DNA of 24,712 nucleotides from a virus. Lineage: Duplodnaviria; Heunggongvirae; Uroviricota; Caudoviricetes. The notes beneath the pieces were generated by a model that ran no database searches, was not told the origin of the DNA, and worked only from the letters and a program-made list of their open reading frames with translations. The stretch covers positions 1 through 24,712 of IMG/VR virus record IMGVR_UViG_2778261459_000007. One strand, given 5' to 3'. Of the stretch, positions 1-22,734 are shown one piece after another (position 1 is the first letter of the stretch; every line of letters starts with the position of its first letter). Position numbers and translations under genes: made by a program.

Positions 1-1158
1 ATGCTCACCGTTAAGCAGATTGAAGCAGCAAAGCCGAAAGAAAAACCATACCGCCTACTCGATGGTAATGGCCTGTACCTTTATGTCCCTGTATCCGGAA
101 AAAAGGTCTGGCAGCTTCGCTACAAGATTGACGGTAAGGAGAAAATCCTGACTGTCGGAAAATATCCGCTTATGACTTTGCAGGAGGCAAGGGATAAAGC
201 ATGGACTGCGAGGAAAGACATCTGGGTTGGTATAGATCCGGTAAAAGCGAAAAAGGCTTCGTCTAACAACAATTCCTTTAGCGCCATTTACAAGGAATGG
301 TACGAGCACAAGAAGCAAGTCTGGTCTGTAGGGTATGCGACTGAACTTGCAAAAATGTTTGATGACGACATTTTACCTATCATCGGCGGCCTTGAAATTC
401 AGGATATTGAGCCGATGCAACTGCTGGAAGTAATCCGCAGATTTGAAGATCGCGGTGCAATGGAACGAGCCAATAAAGCCCGAAGAAGATGCGGCGAGGT
501 TTTCCGTTACGCTATTGTCACCGGAAGGGCTAAATATAACCCGGCACCTGACCTTGCTGACGCCATGAAGGGATACCGCAAGAAGAACTTCCCGTTTCTT
601 CCTGCAGACCAGATCCCGGCATTTAACAAAGCACTGGCAACATTTTCAGGAAGCATCGTATCGCTCATTGCGACCAAAGTTTTACGCTACACAGCCCTCA
701 GAACAAAAGAGCTTCGTTCCATGCTATGGAAGAACGTCGATTTTGAAAACAGGATTATCACCATCGACGCCAATGTGATGAAGGGACGCAAAATTCATGT
801 GGTTCCTATGTCAGACCAGGTAGTTGAACTTCTCACTACGCTAAGCTCAATCACTAAACCAGTGTCAGAGTTTGTTTTTGCCGGGCGCAACGATAAGAAG
901 AAGCCAATCTGCGAGAACGCGGTATTGCTTGTGATCAAACAAATCGGCTATGAGGGTCTGGAAAGCGGTCACGGATTCAGGCATGAATTCAGCACAATTA
1001 TGAACGAGCACGAATGGCCTGCTGACGCTATTGAAGTGCAACTGGCACATGCCAACGGCGGATCTGTGCGTGGGATTTACAACCATGCTCAGTATCTCGA
1101 TAAACGCAGAGAAATGATGCAGTGGTGGGCGGACTGGCTTGATGAAAAGGTGGAGTGA
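1..1158 (+). CDS. int: Tyrosine integrase, P4-family (site-specific recombinase)
   Basis: 385-codon ORF starting at window base 1. N-terminal arm-type DNA-binding motif (LTVKQIEAAKPKEKPYRL..DGNGLYL) typical of P4-like integrases; C-terminal catalytic region with H-x-x-R (HGFRHEF) and a terminal tyrosine region (GIYNHAQY). Convergent with the acyltransferase, as int is at the conversion-gene end of P22/Sf6-type genomes. Confidence 0.9.
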   Translation: MLTVKQIEAAKPKEKPYRLLDGNGLYLYVPVSGKKVWQLRYKIDGKEKILTVGKYPLMTLQEARDKAWTARKDIWVGIDPVKAKKASSNNNSFSAIYKEWYEHKKQVWSVGYATELAKMFDDDILPIIGGLEIQDIEPMQLLEVIRRFEDRGAMERANKARRRCGEVFRYAIVTGRAKYNPAPDLADAMKGYRKKNFPFLPADQIPAFNKALATFSGSIVSLIATKVLRYTALRTKELRSMLWKNVDFENRIITIDANVMKGRKIHVVPMSDQVVELLTTLSSITKPVSEFVFAGRNDKKKPICENAVLLVIKQIGYEGLESGHGFRHEFSTIMNEHEWPADAIEVQLAHANGGSVRGIYNHAQYLDKRREMMQWWADWLDEKVE

Positions 1159-14801: not shown

Positions 14802-17000
14802 TTACTGCTGTGGTTGTTGCTGAGTTGATTTTTGCAGGATGCTGCTGATGTCCATGCGCTGCGCATGGCCCTGTGCCTGACTTTTCAGGACAAGCTCTGC
14901 ATCAGCACGGGCATTATCTCCTTGCTGTTGCTGGAACTGTCCGAGCAGTTTCAGCGCCTCACGGATATCAGATTTTTGCTGGCTATCGGCAGATGCGAGG
15001 ATTTTCACAACATTTGCCGCAGCAACCTGAGCATCCGTCTGTGCCTGGAATGCTTTAACCTGAATGGCTGCTTGTTCGTTCTGCGCTTTCTGCAATTCAG
15101 CCTGACCAGCAAGAAGCTGACCTTGCGCAGCAACCATAGCCGGATCTGGCTGACTGGCCTGTTGTTGTTTCGCCTGTTCAACCATCTGCTGTTCTTCAGG
15201 CGTTCTCGGCTTGATAACGCCAGACAGAAGCAACTGATTGCGGTTGTATTCTTTAAGGTCGTCCATCCCTTCGCCGTCCATATTGTCGAGAATCATCGAC
15301 GATACAAGGTCGTGCTTCGGCGTTCCTGGTGGGATAAGTGCCAGCATGGAAAGTAACGACTTAACCGTTGCGTCACGGCGAGTAGCGAACGACTGACCGA
15401 CATCGACAGTCACTTCATAGTTACCCTGCGAAAGGTCGTTAAGCGCGATAACCTGCCCTGTCTGACGGTCAACCACTTCACCAGTCATCAGCGCCACGTC
15501 ATCGCTGCCGTCCTCATTAACGATACGCATAGGCGTATCACTGCCATAGACCTCACGCGCCATAGAAAGCCACACAACGCCAGCGCGACGCATGGATTTA
15601 GCCATGTTGTCCATGTAGATATAGGACTGCGTGTCCATCCTGTTAAAGATGCTATCAACGGTATCGGTAGCGACGTTGCTCGGCATGTTCTCAAGCTGCG
15701 ACGCACCTGTAATTTGCTGAATAGCCGTTCCGGTGTACTGCAATAGTCCGGCAAGAGCAGGAGGCATTTGTGTTGGGGGTGTCCAGCCAGCAACCTGAGC
15801 TTCTGAAATGACTGTTCCGTTTTTGTCCTTCTTGCTGGTCATAGGAAGAACTGCAGGTCTTTTCTTATTCCTCTCTGCCCAGTGATTCATTAATGGGCCG
15901 GGAATGAAATCAACATCCACGATAGGAATACCATCACCGCCAGCCTGAGTAGCGTTATCTGCAATCATGGAAACCATCAGGTTCTCAAGACGCTGAGCAT
16001 CCATCGCTTTTGCTGCGTGGCCTTCGATTCGCTCCTGATTATCAACAAATGAGCGACGCCCATATACCGGGATGAGAGGAATATGTTCGCCCGGAATACG
16101 CTTCGGTTCTTCCAGCCATTCAGCGCCAGACAGAAGACCGCAATAAACTCTGCGTTTCTTCACTGTCCGCTCACCAATCAGTTCGAATGCGCCATCGGTC
16201 AGCTCGTCGACAATATCTTTGATTTGCTCTTCATCATAGATTGCCGTTTCTCCGCTAACAGGGTTGCGCCATGCCGTGAGCTTCACCTTCTCTATGCGAA
16301 CTTCGTAGTAGCGACCAACATAGATAGCATCAGGGGTTGACCAGTCATATTGAGTGCCAGTGTCATCACGAGAAAGGCTTGCCGCGATGGAATCAGGGTA
16401 TTCAGCCTCGAACGCTTTAGGCGTCATGGAGAACATTTCCATAGCCCACATAGCATCAGAGCGGTCATATTGCTTGCTGTCCTGATCGAAGAAGACGCAT
16501 GTGGCCGGGTCGTAAACAGGAAGAAGGCTGATGCGTCGCTGCTCGTTACTTGGGTCCATTTCATCTTCGTAATCGGCACACATGCGGAAACAACCGAATC
16601 CGCCCGTTACAGCATCATCAAATGCGTTATCACACGCTTCGCCACCGGATGTTTCCTGATAGTCAGCGCGGAATTTGCCGTTCATCTTTTCGGCTAACGC
16701 TTCCGATGCCTTATCGTCCTTCGGCCTGAATTTAACGCTGATGCGATTCTGTCGATACTCGCCAATGATGCGATCACATTCACGGGCAATCTTATTCAGT
16801 TCAAAGCGCGGGTAATGCTCAAACCTTCCTTCATCAAATGAGTAACCAGCGTTTGTGCTGCCTTCCCACTGTGCGCCGGACACCCGGACGAAACGTTGAG
16901 CCTCAATAATCTGCTCACGCATATCCTGCGTTGCTGACCAGGCATTATCAAAGTTGCACAGCACCTTGCGATGCCAGTCAGTCATCTTTTTTTCTGCCAT
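14802..17000 (-). CDS. Portal protein, P22 gp1-like
   Basis: 732-aa ORF immediately downstream of large terminase. C-terminal region (…PEEQQMVEQAKQQQASQPDPAMVAAQGQLLAGQAELQKAQNEQ…RMDISSILQ…) matches the long Q-rich helical barrel of P22 portal as recalled. Confidence 0.92.
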   Translation of the reverse strand: MAEKKMTDWHRKVLCNFDNAWSATQDMREQIIEAQRFVRVSGAQWEGSTNAGYSFDEGRFEHYPRFELNKIARECDRIIGEYRQNRISVKFRPKDDKASEALAEKMNGKFRADYQETSGGEACDNAFDDAVTGGFGCFRMCADYEDEMDPSNEQRRISLLPVYDPATCVFFDQDSKQYDRSDAMWAMEMFSMTPKAFEAEYPDSIAASLSRDDTGTQYDWSTPDAIYVGRYYEVRIEKVKLTAWRNPVSGETAIYDEEQIKDIVDELTDGAFELIGERTVKKRRVYCGLLSGAEWLEEPKRIPGEHIPLIPVYGRRSFVDNQERIEGHAAKAMDAQRLENLMVSMIADNATQAGGDGIPIVDVDFIPGPLMNHWAERNKKRPAVLPMTSKKDKNGTVISEAQVAGWTPPTQMPPALAGLLQYTGTAIQQITGASQLENMPSNVATDTVDSIFNRMDTQSYIYMDNMAKSMRRAGVVWLSMAREVYGSDTPMRIVNEDGSDDVALMTGEVVDRQTGQVIALNDLSQGNYEVTVDVGQSFATRRDATVKSLLSMLALIPPGTPKHDLVSSMILDNMDGEGMDDLKEYNRNQLLLSGVIKPRTPEEQQMVEQAKQQQASQPDPAMVAAQGQLLAGQAELQKAQNEQAAIQVKAFQAQTDAQVAAANVVKILASADSQQKSDIREALKLLGQFQQQQGDNARADAELVLKSQAQGHAQRMDISSILQKSTQQQPQQ

Positions 17001-17001
17001 A

Positions 17002-18417
17002 TCAACCTACACCACAAGGAATTGAGTAACTGGAATAGTCGGGTTGCGCAGCCGACTCCGGGCAATGCATACACATCATCAGCGCATCAGCCAGGTTAGG
17101 AGATGGAATACCGAGCTTCTGCTTCATTTCGACCTTAGTCATAAGCTCCAGCTTCCCGTTGTTATTGAATTTGCGCTGAATCTGCGTCAGTTCTGCAAAC
17201 AGCTTCTCCAGCATATTCTCGCCTATCGCTTCTTTGTCGAAACTCAGCATGTCGTCGGGGTCTGCATACTCACCGTGGACAACCGCCCGATATGTCAGAT
17301 ACAGCCTGTCAGCCAGCGCGTAATAGAATTGCGCTCGCTTATTGCGGAACACATCGCCAATAGTACGAACATTGTCGCCCTGTACGACTTCATCAGACCA
17401 TGCTCCGGCCTGATAAGGCGCATCTTCATCGAATGGCGATTCGCTGCCCTTGAACATCGTGGCGGTGATTTTCTTACCGGAGAATGCTTCCGTTGTCTGT
17501 CTGCGTAGCCCGGCACCAACGCCATCGCCATCCCACAGGTAGTGGTCAGCGCCGTCTTCAATCGCCAGCGAAGTAGCCCAGTCAGCCCCCTCGTTGATGT
17601 CCATCAGCAGGCCTTCGGCAATGCGTTTAACTACCGAACCGTGGCGCGATGCATAACCTTTAGCATCCGGTCCTGTATCTGACGGGTCATGCGCAGAAAC
17701 AACCGCACCTTTCGCTTTCCACCCGAGTTTCGTGTGCGCATCGGTTGCAGCTTCAAGCCATTCACGTTTGATGATTGCCATATCACTTGCGCTCACTGGC
17801 TCACCCAGCCAGATGTGACGATACAGTGTCGGATTTCTGCGTTTGCACTCTTCCATCTCCAGACGGAGAACTTCAGGAAAGTGCGGGTTGTCGGTGTAGT
17901 TCACCGTCAGCAGACAAATATCATCTGGAGGATTTACAACGAATCGCTGATAGGTATCGTCGAGGATGTTCTTCGGGTTAAAGCTCACCCATATTTCAGA
18001 GAACGGCTTACGGATGGTTGGTATCAGGATATCCCATGATTCCTTCGTTACCGCTTCCGCTTCTTCCACCCAGCAGATATCAATACCTTCTAGCGATTTA
18101 ATCTTCGTCGGGTTGTTTTTGATGCCGTAGAACATGAACTCAGCATTCGTTCCGAGATGACGAATCATGGAACGCTGAATTTCAAACTCAGCCGAATACC
18201 CTTCACGCTCGATGGTATCTTCAAGCAACCGGATTACCGAATCGCTGATACTGTTTTGCAGTTCACGAGCGCAAAGAATACGCACAGGCTGCCGACGTGC
18301 CGCTTCAACAAGCAGCCTAGCAATTGCCCATGACTTACCGCTACCTCGACCGCCTTTGGCGACTTTGTAGCGATGCGCCTCAATGAACGGTTCAAAGATA
18401 GGATTAATCGAGGTCAT
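17002..18417 (-). CDS. Terminase large subunit (ATPase/nuclease), Sf6 gp2 / P22 gp2-like
   Basis: 471-aa ORF. Walker A motif VAKGGRGSGKSWA near the N-terminus and acidic nuclease region in the C-terminal half. Start overlaps the small terminase stop (ATGA). N-terminal sequence matches Sf6 large terminase as I recall it. Confidence 0.95.
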   Translation of the reverse strand: MTSINPIFEPFIEAHRYKVAKGGRGSGKSWAIARLLVEAARRQPVRILCARELQNSISDSVIRLLEDTIEREGYSAEFEIQRSMIRHLGTNAEFMFYGIKNNPTKIKSLEGIDICWVEEAEAVTKESWDILIPTIRKPFSEIWVSFNPKNILDDTYQRFVVNPPDDICLLTVNYTDNPHFPEVLRLEMEECKRRNPTLYRHIWLGEPVSASDMAIIKREWLEAATDAHTKLGWKAKGAVVSAHDPSDTGPDAKGYASRHGSVVKRIAEGLLMDINEGADWATSLAIEDGADHYLWDGDGVGAGLRRQTTEAFSGKKITATMFKGSESPFDEDAPYQAGAWSDEVVQGDNVRTIGDVFRNKRAQFYYALADRLYLTYRAVVHGEYADPDDMLSFDKEAIGENMLEKLFAELTQIQRKFNNNGKLELMTKVEMKQKLGIPSPNLADALMMCMHCPESAAQPDYSSYSIPCGVG

Positions 18418-18836
18418 TTTCCGAATAGAGTGCTCATCGGTGATGTTTCAATCTGGATTGCGCCGCCGTCCTTACCGACAAGCTCGTTAGTTACCTTGTC
18501 GCCATACTTACGGGGATTCATTCGGGCCAACGCCCATTTGCGTGTATCAACGCGAAGTCTTGCCTTTGCCACTTCAGCAGCATCTGGAATCGCATTGTCA
18601 GCAATTTCGAATATCTCTTCGAAAATAGAATCAGCTCGTGCCTCAGTTGCCTTCGCGTACTTGTCGCGAAAATCCTCATGCTTTGCCAACCAGCGGAAAA
18701 CAGTGGACTTATCCGGCATACCAGGACGCTTACATACTTTCAGCAAACTCTCGCCAGAAGAAAGCAACGAGCAGATATCGTCAGCCACCTCCGGCATATA
18801 ATCAGAGGGGCGACCAGCTTTTGGTTCAGTCGCCAT
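18414..18836 (-). CDS. Terminase small subunit, Sf6 gp1-like
   Basis: 140-aa product MATEPKAGRPSDYMPEVADDICSLLSSGESLLKVCKRPGMPDKSTVFRWL… with an N-terminal HTH-like DNA-binding domain; matches Sf6 gp1 as recalled. The ORF-track start at 18842 (MNM…) is equally possible. Confidence 0.9.
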   Translation of the reverse strand: MATEPKAGRPSDYMPEVADDICSLLSSGESLLKVCKRPGMPDKSTVFRWLAKHEDFRDKYAKATEARADSIFEEIFEIADNAIPDAAEVAKARLRVDTRKWALARMNPRKYGDKVTNELVGKDGGAIQIETSPMSTLFGK

Positions 18837-19040
18837 ATTCATCTCACTTAATTTTTATTTCAGGTTGAGGACTCTTTCGCGCCTTCAATCAGTGACTGCT
18901 TCAGCAATTCGAGTGTGCCAATCGCCTCGCATAAACTGATTTCACCATCGTAATCATGAATGACGCTTTCCATCCGCTCGTATAGCTCTTGAGTAATTGG
19001 GAATTTCTTCTCCTTACCAAAATTGATTACGCGGCTCACA

Positions 19041-19283
19041 TCATGTTCCGGTGGTGAACAGGTCTAACGCTTCCTTCGATTTACGCACCGCTTCGATTGT
19101 GCGGGTCGTGATATCCGAATTAGCGCCGCCTGACTGGAAGTGAATTTTGAATAGCTCAAGCTTCAGTTCGTCAGTGCCAATGAACTGAAATGCTTCCTCT
19201 GCGGCTGCGTTCTGGTTCATGACCAGTTTGTAAATCTCTAACTGGAATTTCTGTTCTTCAGTCATGGGAATAATCTCTGCCAT
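19041..19283 (-). CDS. Small hypothetical protein (80 aa), likely equivalent of the small ORF found between rha and the terminase genes in P22-like phages
   Basis: ORF with ATG 19283 preceded by GGAG at about 9 nt; predicted helical, acidic. Position between rha-like and small terminase. Function unknown. Confidence 0.6.
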   Translation of the reverse strand: MAEIIPMTEEQKFQLEIYKLVMNQNAAAEEAFQFIGTDELKLELFKIHFQSGGANSDITTRTIEAVRKSKEALDLFTTGT

Positions 19284-19635
19284 TGTTGGCTCCGTTTATC
19301 CGTTAAAAGGGATATCAGTTAAGTTATCCCGTGTAGGGTATAAGCCATTGTCGAGACCACTCATTGAATGGCCTCTGCAATAACCGATGTCTTTCCATCA
19401 GTCCGCCACCACAAAGAATCTTTTTTGCCATCAGGCAGGAGGTTCATCTTTCAGTGGCTGCCAGTGTTATTTCCCCACTTACTGGCTTGGGTTGTTTCGC
19501 TGTACTGCCGTAACTGGTGGTGCACAGATTTAGTTAAATCTGTTCTCGCCTGAACTATCTTTTACATACCCGGATTGTGGGGATGTAAATCACGGTTTCA
19601 TTATCAAGCCCACCCGTAGATGGGCTTTGTAATGG

Positions 19636-20154
19636 TCACTTTGGCAGTCCGGGGATCGATATTTGCGCCTGCTGCTCAAGCCTTTCGATTCTTGCTATGA
19701 GTTGCGGTTTTTTGATCCTGCCCCAGCGGTTCAGCAAGCGTCCTGACATACTGGCAACATCCTTTTCCTTCATGAACTCCAGCATTAACTCGTTGTGCTC
19801 TCTTTGGTATGAGTGAGCCATCTCCATCAGCCTGTCACGCATCCAATTAAATGCTTTGATAAACGCCTCTTTGATGGCGGCAGCTTTTTTGCCGGTAAAC
19901 GACATGATGATGTACATCGCGCCGTCTTTGGAAATTTCATATTCAACATACTGATTACCCTTGTGTTCATAGGTAACCCGCGAAAAGTTGCTGGTTAGAA
20001 ATTCATCCGAACAGTCTAGCTTTTCGATTTTCTGAATGATGTGGTGATGCTGCTTGTCGAAGTAAGCTGCTACCTTGCGGGAGGTTGTGATCACGCGATC
20101 ACCAGAAACAACCACCATGTCCCGGAAATCGAGATTAGCCAATTGATGATTCAT
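19636..20154 (-). CDS. rha: Rha-family phage regulatory protein
   Basis: 172-aa ORF. N-terminal VVVSGDRVITTSRKVAAYFDKQHHHIIQKIEKL fits the Phage_pRha domain signature. Located between the lysis cassette and terminase, where P22-like phages carry a rha-type gene. Confidence 0.7.
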   Translation of the reverse strand: MNHQLANLDFRDMVVVSGDRVITTSRKVAAYFDKQHHHIIQKIEKLDCSDEFLTSNFSRVTYEHKGNQYVEYEISKDGAMYIIMSFTGKKAAAIKEAFIKAFNWMRDRLMEMAHSYQREHNELMLEFMKEKDVASMSGRLLNRWGRIKKPQLIARIERLEQQAQISIPGLPK

Positions 20155-20302
20155 AGCGTCTTTACCTTTTAGAAAGATGAGCCTGTTCGCACAGAAAAGC
20201 CGTCCCCGAGATGGTCGCCACCATATACGGCAATTCTCAGGCTCAGCTTTCTGAAAGACTCGGGATTGTTACGCGCTGCGATGCGCGGTTTACTGCAGAT
20301 GT

Positions 20303-20326
20303 AAAAAAGCCCCGCAAATGCGAGGC
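20303..20326 (-). terminator. Intrinsic terminator between Rz and rha
   Basis: Minus-strand RNA GCCUCGC-AUUU-GCGGGGC (7-bp stem with one G-U pair) followed by UUUUUU. Confidence 0.6.
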
Positions 20327-20500
20327 TAAATCCTGGTATTTGTAATGACTGGCTATTATCTCAACGCAGCCCCTTACTGCGCGCCAGATGCTCAATATCA
20401 AGCATCAGCAATGAGATGTTTAATCTGGATTCACTCCAGAAGTGATCACCACCCTGTCTACAGAGCCAGATGTGAAGGATGATGAGTAAAATTATCTCTA

Positions 20501-20938
20501 TCATCGAAGGCATTGCGTCCTGATGTATTCCTGCAGGTAGTTAACCTGCGCGGTTATCTTGTCGATTCCACTTCGGAGACGGTAATAATTGAGTTCAGCA
20601 TCTGCTGTAAGTCTTGGGCTTTCTCCATCGCCCATGCTGCTGGCTCCGGTAGTTGACTTTGCACAGGTGGCGGCGACTTGCAGGCGCTTACGCCCAGCAG
20701 AAACATCAGCACGGAGACTTTCGATAGTCGCGTTAGCATCAGCAAGCTCCTTTGTGTATCTGGCGTCGAGTTCTGCTACATCACGTTGACGCTTCTGCAT
20801 GTCAGCGATGATGGATGTGGCTTTATCGCGCTGTTCTTTATAGGTAATGGCGTTATCACGGTAATGATTAACAGCCCATGACAGACAGACGATGATGCAG
20901 ATAACCAGAGCGGAGATAATCGCGGTGACTCTGCTCAT
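20501..20938 (-). CDS. Rz: i-spanin Rz (inner-membrane spanin subunit)
   Basis: 145-aa ORF. First ~34 residues [34 protein letters not shown] match lambda Rz as recalled; the rest diverges but stays coiled-coil-like. Start overlaps the endolysin stop. Confidence 0.9.
20554..20745 (-). CDS. Rz1: o-spanin Rz1 (outer-membrane lipoprotein), embedded in the +1 frame of Rz
   Basis: 63-aa ORF wholly inside Rz. Signal peptide with lipobox (LLGVSAC) and a Pro-rich mature region ([16 protein letters not shown]), typical of embedded Rz1. Exact start (M1 or M3) uncertain. Confidence 0.8.
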
Positions 20939-21411
20939 ACCTCAATCTCTCTGACCGTTCCGCCAGCCTCTTTGAATTTTGCAATCAGGCTGTCAGCCTT
21001 ATGCTCGAACTGACCATAACCAGCGCCCGGCAGTGAAGCCCAGATATTGCTGCAACGGTCGATAGCCTGACGAATATCACCGCGATCAATCATCGGCAAA
21101 GCGCCACGCTCCTTAATCTGCTGCAATGCCACAGCGTCCTGGCTTTTGGGAGAGAAGTCTTTCAGGCCAAGCTGCTTACGGTAGGCATCCCACCAACGGG
21201 AAAGAAGCTGGTAACGTCCGGCGGCTGTTGATTTGAGTTTTGGGTTTAGCGTGACAAGTTTGCGAGGGTGATCGGAGTAATCAGTGAATAGTTCTCCCCC
21301 TACAATGACGTCATAACCATGATTTCTGGTTTTCTGTCGTCCGTTATCAGTTCCCTCTGACCACGCCAGCATATCGAGGAACGCCTTACGTTGATTATTG
21401 ATTTCCACCAT
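20935..21411 (-). CDS. R: Endolysin R (lytic transglycosylase), lambda-type
   Basis: 158-aa [52 protein letters not shown]… is essentially lambda R as recalled, including the catalytic Glu in the WSEGT context. Confidence 0.95.
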
Positions 21412-21718
21412 CTTCTACTCCGGCTTTTTTAGCAGCGAAGCGTTTGATAAGCGAACCAATCGAGTCAGTACCGATGTAGCCGATGAACACGCTCGTTATA
21501 TAAGCGAGATTGCTACTTAGTCCGGCGAAGTCGAGAAGGTCACGAATGAACCAGGCGATAATGGCGCACATCGTTGCGTCGATTACTGTTTTTGTAAACG
21601 CACCGCCATTATATCTGCCGCGAAGGTACGCCATTGCAAACGCAAGGATTGCCCCGATGCCTTGTTCCTTTGCCGCGAGAATGGCGGCTAACAGGTCATG
21701 TTTTTCTGGCATCTTCAT
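21395..21718 (-). CDS. S: Holin/antiholin S (S107/S105 dual-start), lambda-type class I holin
   Basis: 107-aa [46 protein letters not shown]…, essentially lambda S. Met1-Lys2-Met3 dual start is present: antiholin S107 from 21718, holin S105 from 21712. Confidence 0.95.
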
Positions 21719-22245: not shown

Positions 22246-22734
22246 CTACGCTACATGTTTAATTTTCTCTACACGTTTCCGGTTTTTAAACGCACTATCC
22301 AGAACCGGGTAAATCATAAACAACGAGGCATTGAGGATTTCGTCAACTTCCCGACGACAGGTTGCGAGCGATGGTTTTTGAATGCGCCCGCCGCCCCGGC
22401 ATAACATCTTGCGAGGTCTTGCGACGCGATGATAGTAAGATGCAATGGCGTGCTTGGAAGAACCGTGGGCGTAGTAGCTGAGGAGGATGCCAAAGGCTTT
22501 CTTGTCAATGTACATGACGGAATCGACGACCTGAGAAATCAACATTCCATCATCATCATTGCACATTGGCCTTGTCATAACTCTTCCCGGCTCTACGCTC
22601 TCCATGAACTTCGCTATTACGCTGCTCATGCGCTTTTCCAGACGACCTGAATAAACCCATGCGCCCCACAGTTCAAGCCAGCCATTCAGCCACTCATGCT
22701 GTTCTTTGGTGAGGTTTAGTTCTCTTATGCCCAC
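22246..22734 (-). CDS. Q: Late-gene antitermination protein Q (non-lambda type; length and sequence suggest the phage 21 Q family)
   Basis: 162-aa ORF immediately downstream of the nin region and upstream of pR'/tR' and the lysis genes. Not lambda Q (207 aa). Cys-containing motif (CRGGGR…C) consistent with a Q-family zinc-binding element. Family assignment is from memory and position. Confidence 0.75.

Follow-up and report, generated by a model that had tools for sequence, protein, structure and literature searches.

The accessory-gene array between the spanin and small terminase genes of a P22-like prophage, and the hairpin repeated within it

As shown in Table 1, the segment between the spanin genes and the Sf6-type small terminase gene of the phage DNA analysed here (the window, 24,712 nt at its full length) lies on the minus strand throughout. 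It is a late-operon interval, and profile matches in the window include the Q antiterminator (PF06530), a holin, Rz, Terminase_3 and a P22-type portal. On the late strand the order is Rz/Rz1, a 50-aa ORF, an intrinsic terminator, a structured leader, cargo slot 1 (Rha N-terminal domain plus ORF11CD3) and hairpin 1, followed by spacers, cargo slot 2 (empty), hairpin 2, the pid site (empty), orf80, orf59c and the small terminase gene. This is the rha–orf80–orf59 accessory stretch of a P22-like prophage, an ordinary one that is annotated already. Identity to the P22 counterparts is 45% for rha, 99% for orf80 and 93% for orf59c, and about half of the complete E. coli genomes hold parts of the stretch. 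The genes themselves are nothing new: a great many prophages of E. coli, Shigella and Salmonella carry the P22 rha/orf80/orf59c set. Since, in addition, lytic growth and lysogeny were normal in P22 lacking orf25, orf80 and pid (bioRxiv 10.1101/2023.08.15.553423, supplement), we regard the gene content as known and ordinary. The GC content of the module (44-48%) passes without a step into that of the neighbouring genes (45-57%), and a GC scan against those genes gave no sign of foreign base composition. The sole integrase in the window is an ordinary phage Int (1-1158). Taken as a whole, and with the expression, hairpin and protein roles proposed below included, the segment is likely to be an accessory-gene array inside the Q-dependent late operon, extending from the spanin genes to the small terminase gene in P22-like and other lambdoid phages.

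Table 1. Features of the array in late-strand order; positions are those of the window.
Feature	Position	Strand	Evidence	Remarks
Rz i-spanin	20501..20938	-	PF03245, 126.5 bits	Last lysis gene, left border of array
Rz1	20554-20745		ORF list	Embedded in Rz
50-aa ORF	20361..20513	-	phrog_11822, E = 1.5e-36	Overlaps Rz stop; N-terminus hydrophobic
Intrinsic terminator	20298..20327	-	Terminator scan	8-bp stem (20327..20308), 6 G-C pairs, then T6
Structured leader of cargo slot 1	20155..20297	-	Sequence comparison, RNA fold	
Rha-family protein, 172 aa	19636..20154	-	Profile matches, PHROG, AlphaFold2	Cargo of slot 1
Hairpin copy 1	19597..19636	-	Covariance model R1, 58.1 bits, E = 5.8e-13	
Variable spacer, 81 bp	19512..19592	-	Absent from phages Huey and L	Two small hairpins
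Conserved spacer	19386..19511	-	Common to P22, Sf6, Huey, L, HK106	Leader of cargo slot 2
Cargo slot 2 insertion point	19385..19385	.	Mosaic-joint map	Empty
Hairpin copy 2	19344..19384	-	Covariance model R1, 61.3 bits, E = 9.1e-14	
pid site, 27 bp	19298..19324	.		Unoccupied; replaced in P22 by 632-bp pid moron
DUF2560 protein, 80 aa	19041..19283	-	PF10834, AlphaFold2	P22 Orf80 equivalent
59-aa ORF	18860..19039	-	phrog_3546	P22 Orf59c equivalent, optional
Small terminase subunit, Sf6 type	18414..18842	-	PF20901, 151.7 bits	Right border of array

The Rha ORF matched PF09669 (Phage_pRha) in its N-terminal domain with 84.1 bits (cut-off 29.9), PF10549 (ORF11CD3) in its C-terminal helical hairpin with 83.9 bits and TIGR02681 with 76 bits (cut-off 45.95), and it was placed in phrog_518 (E = 5.5e-80). 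The first-pass annotation had called it Rha-like, and its membership of the PF09669/TIGR02681 family is correct. The AlphaFold2 model had a pLDDT of 85; neither a single-sequence nor a profile search found a relative of solved structure. P22 Rha shares the architecture (Rha + ORF11CD3) and the late-operon position downstream of Rz, and its C-terminal domain is near-identical to the one found here. ORF11CD3 is almost invariant among proteins with N-terminal domains only 45% identical, which suggests a conserved partner. DNA binding is probably the task of the N-terminal domain, and self-pairing or contact with a partner the probable role of the C-terminal helical hairpin. For rha of P22 and phi80 the published phenotype is that phages grow poorly in IHF-deficient hosts because the gene product inhibits them, and the gene is IHF-regulated (PMC4936722). 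A consensus search with WATCAANNNNTTR detected no IHF site near rha in the present sequence, a search that does not by itself settle IHF regulation or phenotype. A Rha-like gene was present in 24 of 64 related loci.

The 80-aa ORF matched PF10834 (DUF2560) over profile positions 1-72 of 72 with 147.7 bits (cut-off 25). Its AlphaFold2 model consists of four helices (pLDDT 76) and its sequence contains about 13 acidic and 8 basic residues, in keeping with the helical acidic protein first described at this place. It had also been described as entirely uncharacterised; it indeed has no assigned function, but it belongs to a known family, that of P22 Orf80. The DUF2560 family is limited to Enterobacterales, with identity as low as 59-63%. 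No relative of solved structure was found by sequence, the best match of a fold search against the PDB had E = 3, and a fold search against viral models returned uncharacterised proteins only. orf80 is retained beside at least four different small-terminase types. On this distribution and on its near identity to the P22 gene, orf80 is placed as a conserved backbone gene rather than as the cargo it had been taken for. We infer that Orf80 is a dispensable small acidic protein made late.

The 59-aa ORF, which separates the 80-aa ORF from the terminase gene, was found in 19 of the 64 related loci, and the 50-aa ORF, the counterpart of Sf6 gene 65 and annotated in Sf6, epsilon34 and Gally, in 35. 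These two ORFs and the RNA structure of the gap with its repeated hairpin had been overlooked in the first-pass annotation.

The intrinsic terminator reported upstream of rha was recovered on the minus strand as an 8-pair stem followed by TTTTTT, and its homologues in HK106 and epsilon34 carry the annotation of a rho-independent terminator. As a class, terminator-like matches in the region were not above chance (3 seen, 2.6 expected). Positions 20147-20327 are 84% identical to HK106, where they lie upstream of HK106_064; the leader of slot 1 is thus retained ahead of a different gene in other phages. The RNA fold of 20140-20365 had a z score of -4.95. A scan of minus-strand positions 18300 to 21000 for consensus sites turned up no sigma-70-like promoter, and so none that would be specific to rha or orf80. 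The genes of the array are probably expressed within the antiterminated late transcript, with Q-modified polymerase predicted to pass the terminator ahead of them.

The gap between rha and orf80 (19284-19635) measures 352 bp and matches the earlier estimate of about 350 bp of non-coding DNA. It contains no tRNA or tmRNA, no Rfam family reached the gathering score in the window (weak matches at chance level, E up to 5, overlap neither hairpin), and its plus-strand ORFs of 48-61 aa had no credible PHROG match. A 45-aa frame of the S4 spacer in some relatives is broken here by a stop codon and was rejected as a small gap protein. Both strands of the gap are highly structured, the RNA fold z score being -6.0 for the late-sense and -4.2 for the antisense strand. 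A terminator-like hairpin of the plus strand (19421-19442) lies within the slot-2 leader, at a site whose homologue in phage L is annotated as a terminator of the same strand, and after this leader four different sequences begin at the same base, following GACATC. The structure of both strands, the plus-strand hairpin and the transcription of P22 pid in the plus-strand direction from this region (PMC8835761) would suit a gap with its own gene for a small RNA or small protein, or repeated hairpins that are simply terminators or insulators. We hold this to be very unlikely. A sigma-70 consensus scan of both strands found no promoter-like site within the gap or close to it, the searches above yielded no RNA family and no family support for the plus-strand ORFs, and the pid promoter and terminator are inside the P22-specific insert that is missing here (PMC8835761). 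The repeated hairpins have the tails GAUAAUGAAACC and GACAAUGGCUUA, without a U-run; the terminator scan called neither, and intrinsic terminators were rejected on these grounds.

Across 72 related loci, Rz and orf80 are separated by anything from 304 to 1913 bp. Among otherwise near-identical phages the slots contain Rha, KilA-N + ORF11CD3, T5orf172, gp49/66, Tad2-like or Acb2-like proteins, and in 16 related loci the position of Rha is occupied by Tad2-like (PF11195) or Acb2/Tad1-like (PF24729) genes; in several of these 16 the TerS/TerL genes are 99-100% identical. By sequence comparison, then, the Rha position is a swap site, which sister phages use for putative Thoeris and CBASS counter-defence genes. 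The slot-2 point is occupied elsewhere by Sf6 gene 66, by gp49/66-family genes of Huey and E. coli SC418, and by a 256-bp insert in Gally, while P22 carries pid between orf25 and orf80 (PMC3573128, PMC8835761). Thus the description of the lysis-to-terminase interval as a cargo hotspot holds for the phage group, but in this genome slot 1 is filled by Rha and the two further insertion sites in the gap are empty. The protein that corresponds to HK620 hkbK in position and architecture has the domains KilA-N + ORF11CD3. When ORF11CD3 was compared with two further KilA-N cargo proteins by hhalign, the matches were weak or non-significant (E = 0.0017, probability 16%; E = 0.45). Families of unknown function at hairpin-closed slots comprise proteins of 85 aa, proteins of 62-65 aa and gp49/66. 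Given the swap-site evidence, reasonable candidates for testing are Rha itself, proteins of the KilA-N + ORF11CD3 type and the small unknown ORFs that occupy this site.

It had been suggested that this module would be the first place to look for anti-defence or host-takeover cargo, and Rha and/or the 80-aa protein could themselves be such factors. The use of the Rha slot by sister phages for Tad2-like and Acb2/Tad1-like genes, the small, acidic and helical Orf80 without an assigned function, and the partner suggested by the near-invariant ORF11CD3 all point that way. Against this, no credible match to anti-defence Pfam families or PADLOC defence models was found among the four small proteins, and the Pfam library was the same one that finds PF11195 and PF24729 in the proteins replacing Rha; the only PADLOC match, that of Rha to PDC-S05 (14 bits, E = 0.005), was not credible. 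Members of the Rha family are DNA-binding regulators, orf80 is conserved rather than variable, P22 grows lytically and lysogenises normally without it, and the fold searches were uninformative. We consider an anti-defence or host-takeover role of these proteins in this genome unlikely.

The closest described arrangement is the P22 segment rha - orf25 - pid - orf80 - orf59c (NC_002371.2, 39575-41437), which occupies the same place between gene 15/Rz1 and gene 3 and contains the same hairpin at 40309-40349 (1376-1416 of our locus L002). It differs in that P22 Rha is another allele (201 aa against 172 aa), in that hairpin 1 and the 81-bp spacer are missing from P22, and in that the small terminase here is of the Sf6 type and not of the P22 type. 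Sf6 genes 65-68, HK620 hkbK-hkbN, Gally, JEP4 and APC_JM3.2 match the present segment at 95-98% DNA identity for most of its length and have the terminase type and the two hairpins found here. Within this group, Sf6 lacks Rha and has gene 66 (gp49/66 family) in slot 2, slot 1 of HK620 is taken by KilA-N + ORF11CD3 (hkbK) plus hkbL, and Gally has its insert in slot 2. With the lambdoid morons, a concept of the Hendrix laboratory to which P22 pid belongs (PMC3573128), the Rha cassette shares its non-essential nature, its patchy presence among relatives and its place between late backbone genes. Unlike a moron, it has no promoter that could be found, no downstream terminator and no unusual base composition. 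It resembles a replaceable gene of the operon, not a transcription unit complete in itself.

The 3′ side of each slot is closed by a hairpin of about 40 nt with the ends CATTRCA ... GAYAATG. From its base upwards it has an outer stem, CAUUR/YAAUG, then a 2x2 internal loop that is always CA/GA, and above this an inner stem of 9-10 bp whose pairs covary. The outer stem of copy 1 starts at the first base past the stop codon of rha. Copy 2 ends 60 nt before the start codon of orf80, and a hairpin copy has the same offset in most of 80 orf80-anchored loci. Pattern matches to the hairpin numbered 2 in the window, with 0.16 expected by chance. A third match to model R1 in the portal gene (16941-16975, 16 bits, E = 0.04) was taken as chance. 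In the hairpin alignment 97% of cells were paired, against 30-51% with the partner columns slid, and changes on both sides were seen in 9 of 15 pairs. The covariation score was 0.48 against 0.25 in shuffled alignments and was reached by 0 of 500 shuffles; the instances had been gathered with an inner-region fold filter, which biases them towards pairing, and a looser unfiltered search gave essentially the same set. The variants amount to about 6-8 sequence types, so that few compensatory events are independent. Inverted DNA repeats may stay complementary without selection on RNA.

The motif was found in P22, Sf6, HK620, L, epsilon34 and HK106. Related loci of up to 14 kb contain 1-3 copies, clustered on one strand, and none elsewhere. 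In the 80 orf80-anchored loci all 126 of 126 R1 matches lay on the late-sense strand upstream of orf80, a strand agreement that in part reflects common ancestry. As a rule the hairpin comes straight after the stop codon of a cargo gene; the ATT of the motif begins 2 nt past a stop codon in 59 of 130 contexts. Among the hairpin pairs, 77 are G·U on the sense strand and 12 are A·C; this excess favours the late-mRNA strand and fits RNA better than duplex DNA. A library text search found no paper containing the hairpin sequence, and in Sf6 (36635-39043) the only annotated boundary sequence lies within Rz, not at the hairpins.

The hairpins could instead act as DNA, as recombination sites or homology anchors that move a cargo gene and its hairpin as a cassette, the RNA structure being incidental. 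The joints of the mosaic coincide precisely with the 5′ edge of the hairpin, whose 5′ flanks form 33 classes, mostly ended by a stop codon, and whose 3′ flanks form 22, four of which cover 155 of 179 contexts. The hairpin type also follows the cargo, type B occurring with gp49/66 and terminator-bearing inserts and type A with the empty site. The likeness to integron attC sites extends to an imperfect hairpin right after a stop codon, conserved ends, covarying stems that differ among the copies of one genome, a conserved unpaired spot and a strand preference, attC too folding strand-specifically. However, the attC cores (RYYYAAC/GTTRRRY) and an integron integrase are absent, the element is about 40 nt long against 57-141 nt, no recombinase is linked to the array, the phage Int being the only integrase in the window, and site-specific excision is unsupported. 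The left joint has no target duplication and lies in ordinary conserved sequence, which fits plain homologous recombination, and the G·U excess suits RNA more than duplex DNA. The PeSL cassettes of T4-type phages combine a strong sigma-70 promoter with a stem-loop that is an effective terminator (PMC2839356, PMC4122927). They resemble the present elements as short conserved stem-loop motifs repeated between non-essential variable genes of a hyperplastic region, at joints between relatives. They differ from them in that here neither promoter nor U-run is present, the copies, 1-3 in number, are confined to one region, and the phages belong to another group. On balance a DNA-level role appears rather improbable.

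We lean towards the hairpins acting as RNA in the late mRNA, as putative intercistronic signals that protect or process 3′ ends, and, within the picture of the array given above, put the chance of this role slightly below even. The evidence for function at the RNA level consists of the strand asymmetry and the position of the copies. The RNase III sites of the T7 early mRNA and the REP-type 3′ stabilisers are hairpins between the cistrons of a polycistronic transcript. With their internal loops, their intercistronic place and their lack of a U-run, the present hairpins would fit these by analogy in shape and position. They differ from RNase III sites in that the candidate stem is shorter than the classical substrate and that RNase III has no need of a loop and outer stem fixed in sequence. 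This constancy suggests recognition by a sequence-specific factor, a description that RNase III does not fit. As RNA signals the hairpins would fix the level of each cargo message, and, being conserved, they would offer the right-hand homology for cargo exchange through ordinary recombination.

We tentatively propose, as something just short of an even bet, that in enterobacterial lambdoid phages the hairpin is a functional element not described before, which a specific factor would read on the strand of the late mRNA and which would mark each exchangeable cargo gene between the lysis and packaging genes at its 3′ end. A functional hairpin would account for both the expression and the exchange of cargo within an essential operon, and would be a simple search handle for the accessory genes of lambdoid prophages. 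If the proposal is true, the covariance model would serve as a beacon, ORFs that stop just before a copy being candidate counter-defence or host-interaction genes. Tad2-like and Acb2-like genes already turn up beside hairpin copies.

Every gene in the part of the window from the Q antiterminator to the portal is carried on the minus strand. This gene content and the integrase at 1-1158 identify the window as a P22-like (Lederbergvirus-type) prophage, with the rha-orf80 stretch inside its late operon. ORF, domain and terminator searches confirmed what the first-pass annotation had placed and described here: the Rha gene, the 80-aa gene, the gap between them and the upstream terminator. The module parts it listed are all present, but it had overlooked the ORFs of 59 and 50 aa.

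Features of the window around the late-operon accessory genes
Feature	Position	Strand	Match or remark
Phage integrase	1-1158		
P22-type portal	14802-17000	minus	PF16510
Large terminase	17002-18417	minus	PF04466
Sf6-type small terminase	18414-18842	minus	PF20901
59-aa ORF	18860-19039	minus	phrog_3546
80-aa DUF2560 protein	19041-19283	minus	PF10834
Gap	19284-19635		352 bp, between rha and the 80-aa gene
172-aa Rha protein	19636-20154	minus	PF09669, PF10549
Intrinsic terminator	stem 20327..20308 + T6	minus	terminator scan
50-aa ORF	20361-20513	minus	phrog_11822
Rz with Rz1	20501-20938	minus	PF03245
Lysozyme-sized ORF	20935-21411	minus	no Pfam match; lysozyme/endolysin in Gally and Sf6 annotation
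Holin	21395-21718	minus	PF05106
Q-type antiterminator	22246-22734	minus	PF06530

The assignment to the Rha family is correct. Both domains of P22 Rha were found in the same architecture, and the two proteins are 45% identical. The N-terminal domain of Rha is of a DNA-binding type, and KilA-N can stand in its place across relatives. The C-terminal ORF11CD3 domain is almost invariant although the N-terminal domains are only 45% identical, which points to a conserved partner for ORF11CD3. In hosts without IHF, rha of P22 or phi80 is known to make phage growth fail (PMC4936722). By protein comparison, Orf80 is 99% identical to P22 Orf80 and the 59-aa protein 93% identical to P22 Orf59c. A sequence search matched the segment in 253 phage records, and parts of it in 2734 of 5426 complete E. 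coli genomes; the annotation there reads 'Rha family transcriptional regulator' and 'DUF2560 family protein'. A P22 derivative with a resistance cassette replacing orf25, orf80 and pid serves as a normal phage (bioRxiv 10.1101/2023.08.15.553423). The gene set that the first-pass annotation described is real, but well known and dispensable.

DUF2560 is restricted to Enterobacterales, with a lowest identity of ~60%. The structure model of Orf80 is a four-helix bundle (pLDDT 76), and neither sequence search nor fold search found informative relatives. The gene is kept beside at least four small-terminase types and is a conserved backbone gene, not cargo; orf59 is optional (19/64 related loci). 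Profile scans matched none of the module proteins to defence or anti-defence families. The 50-aa ORF, found in 35 of the 64 loci, overlaps the Rz stop codon and has Sf6 gene 65 as its counterpart; its N-terminus is hydrophobic, and the lysis cassette may thus have a small membrane protein appended to it.

Published work places the pid moron of P22 in the gap between rha/orf25 and orf80, and the authors of that work already observed relatives with no insert or a different one there (PMC3573128, PMC8835761). We mapped joints between the window and Gally, P22, Sf6, Huey, HK106, an E. coli prophage and phage L. The pid moron of P22 stands in place of window 19298-19324 (the pid site). A second insertion point (slot 2) is at 19385, where relatives carry Sf6 gene 66, gp49/66-family genes (Huey, E. 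coli SC418) or a 256-bp insert (Gally). Its left joint is an abrupt break right after GACATC, and no duplicated core sequence was seen there, which speaks for slot exchange through ordinary homologous recombination, not a site-specific enzyme. The Rha gene itself (slot 1) is exchangeable, as its flanks at 20147-20327 (5') and 19593-19635 (3') are kept around another gene in other phages. Occupants of the Rha position include KilA-N + ORF11CD3 proteins of the HK620 hkbK type, further KilA-N proteins, a T5orf172/MUG113 protein, a Tad2-like protein (PF11195) and an Acb2/Tad1-like protein (PF24729). Tad2-like or Acb2-like genes lie exactly there in 16 loci, several of which have TerS and TerL 99-100% identical to those of the window. 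Across 72 related, orf80-anchored IMG/VR loci the Rz-to-orf80 distance ranges from 304 to 1913 bp. The proposal of a cargo hotspot is thus borne out for the phage group, but not for the genes present here: Rha fills slot 1, nothing occupies slot 2 or the pid site, and anti-defence cargo in this genome found no support, no module protein matching a defence or anti-defence family.

Joint mapping also showed that 19512-19592 is a variable spacer. Two well-formed hairpins lie within these 81 bp, one having a perfect 8-bp stem (ACAGATTT/AAATCTGT); in most relatives an unrelated and shorter linker takes the place of the spacer. In the siphovirus HK106 (locus L005, 747-830) the gap is kept, as are the first 82 nt of orf80; an ORF annotated as HK97 Gp74-like follows, so the mosaic joint falls within orf80. 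The family phrog_23132 matches residues 1-28 of Orf80 only, and is probably made up of truncated orf80 fragments of this kind.

The gap had been described as about 350 bp of non-coding DNA. Its length was right, but it is not featureless, and the motif within it, with the slot structure that the motif marks, is worth a second look. Compared with shuffled sequence, the gap has a much stronger RNA fold (z = -6.0 in late sense, -4.2 on the other strand), and two of its hairpins share a single motif. Copy 1 (19636-19597) has its first base directly after the stop codon of Rha; copy 2 (19384-19344) runs from the slot-2 insertion point to 60 nt ahead of the start codon of orf80. From 5' to 3' the motif consists of CATTRCA, a stem of 9-10 bp with its loop and returning strand, and GAYAATG. 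Its outer stem alternates between ATTA/TAAT and ATTG/CAAT, its 2x2 internal loop CA/GA is invariant, and at least six versions of its inner stem, with compensating changes, were found. Among 35 distinct instances, which stem from only a handful of lineages, 97% of cells paired versus 30-51% with partners slid, 9 of 15 pairs had changes on both sides, and the covariation score was 0.48 versus 0.25 for shuffles (reached by 0/500). The search that supplied the instances applied a folding filter; a filter-free search gave nearly the same set.

A covariance model of the motif found exactly copies 1 and 2 in the window (58 and 61 bits), the next match having 16 bits. That match (16941-16975, minus; E = 0.04), within the first portal codons just after the large terminase, is probably due to chance. 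In the 80 orf80-anchored loci the model found 126 copies, every one upstream of orf80 and in late-sense orientation. In 50 further loci (up to 14 kb) there are 1-3 clustered copies, on one strand per locus and none elsewhere in the locus. The hairpin is present in all six reference phages (P22, Sf6, HK620, L, epsilon34 and HK106), and also in a phage with a lambda-type Nu1/A terminase. It matched no Rfam family in a covariance search, and its sequence was found in none of the papers searched. The anatomy is that of a late-operon array of exchangeable cargo slots, with a hairpin closing each.

Sense-strand pair types are asymmetric (77 G·U versus 12 A·C), in 59/130 contexts the motif ATT starts 2 nt past the stop of the ORF before it, and no U-run follows the stem. 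Because of these three properties a role as RNA in the late message is favoured. The chief alternative, possible but less favoured, is that the hairpin acts in the DNA as a recombination element like PeSL or attC (PMC2839356); searches showed the defining features of neither. Flanks fall into 33 classes on the 5' side and 22 on the 3' side, four of the latter dominant. Under the favoured RNA role, the late transcript, antiterminated by Q, would carry the cargo cistrons, whose 3' ends the hairpin would protect or process in the manner of T7 RNase III sites or REP elements. The conserved hairpin would also provide right-hand homology for cassette exchange.

The Tad2-like genes (159-173 aa) encode an additional N-terminal domain of ~75 aa, and the Acb2/Tad1-like genes are of ~97 aa. 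Both lie directly before a hairpin, in late operons of prophages that are P22-like or HK97-like. The Tad2-like gene of Huey is annotated 'anti-CRISPR protein', which looks like a mislabel. The commonest ORF ending at the hairpin (38 contexts) encodes an 85-aa protein (MSDRVIECASRAG...) with a lysine/alanine-rich tail and no Pfam family. It always follows an hkbK-type KilA-N + ORF11CD3 gene, and is the HK620 hkbL equivalent by position and size. The P22 hairpin is at 1376-1416 of its locus L002 (NC_002371.2 40309-40349), and the annotated orf25 (40329-40406) starts inside it; the corresponding window frame meets a stop after 9-13 codons. P22 orf25 may not be a gene.

A scan for sigma-70 consensus promoters detected none for the accessory genes. 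With the terminator just upstream of them, we infer that the late transcript, antiterminated by Q, is what expresses them. Ahead of rha, the leader (20140-20365, minus) is strongly structured (z = -4.95), and HK106 has the same leader at 84% identity ahead of a different gene. Its fold partly encloses the rha ribosome-binding site. Immediately ahead of the terminator, at ~20336-20344, is a half-motif, CATTACAAA, similar to the 5' arm of the hairpin. A plus-strand terminator-like hairpin lies opposite the late genes at 19421-19442; phage L has a terminator annotated at the homologous site, on the corresponding strand, and the element could stop antisense (e.g. pid-type) transcripts from entering the lysis genes.
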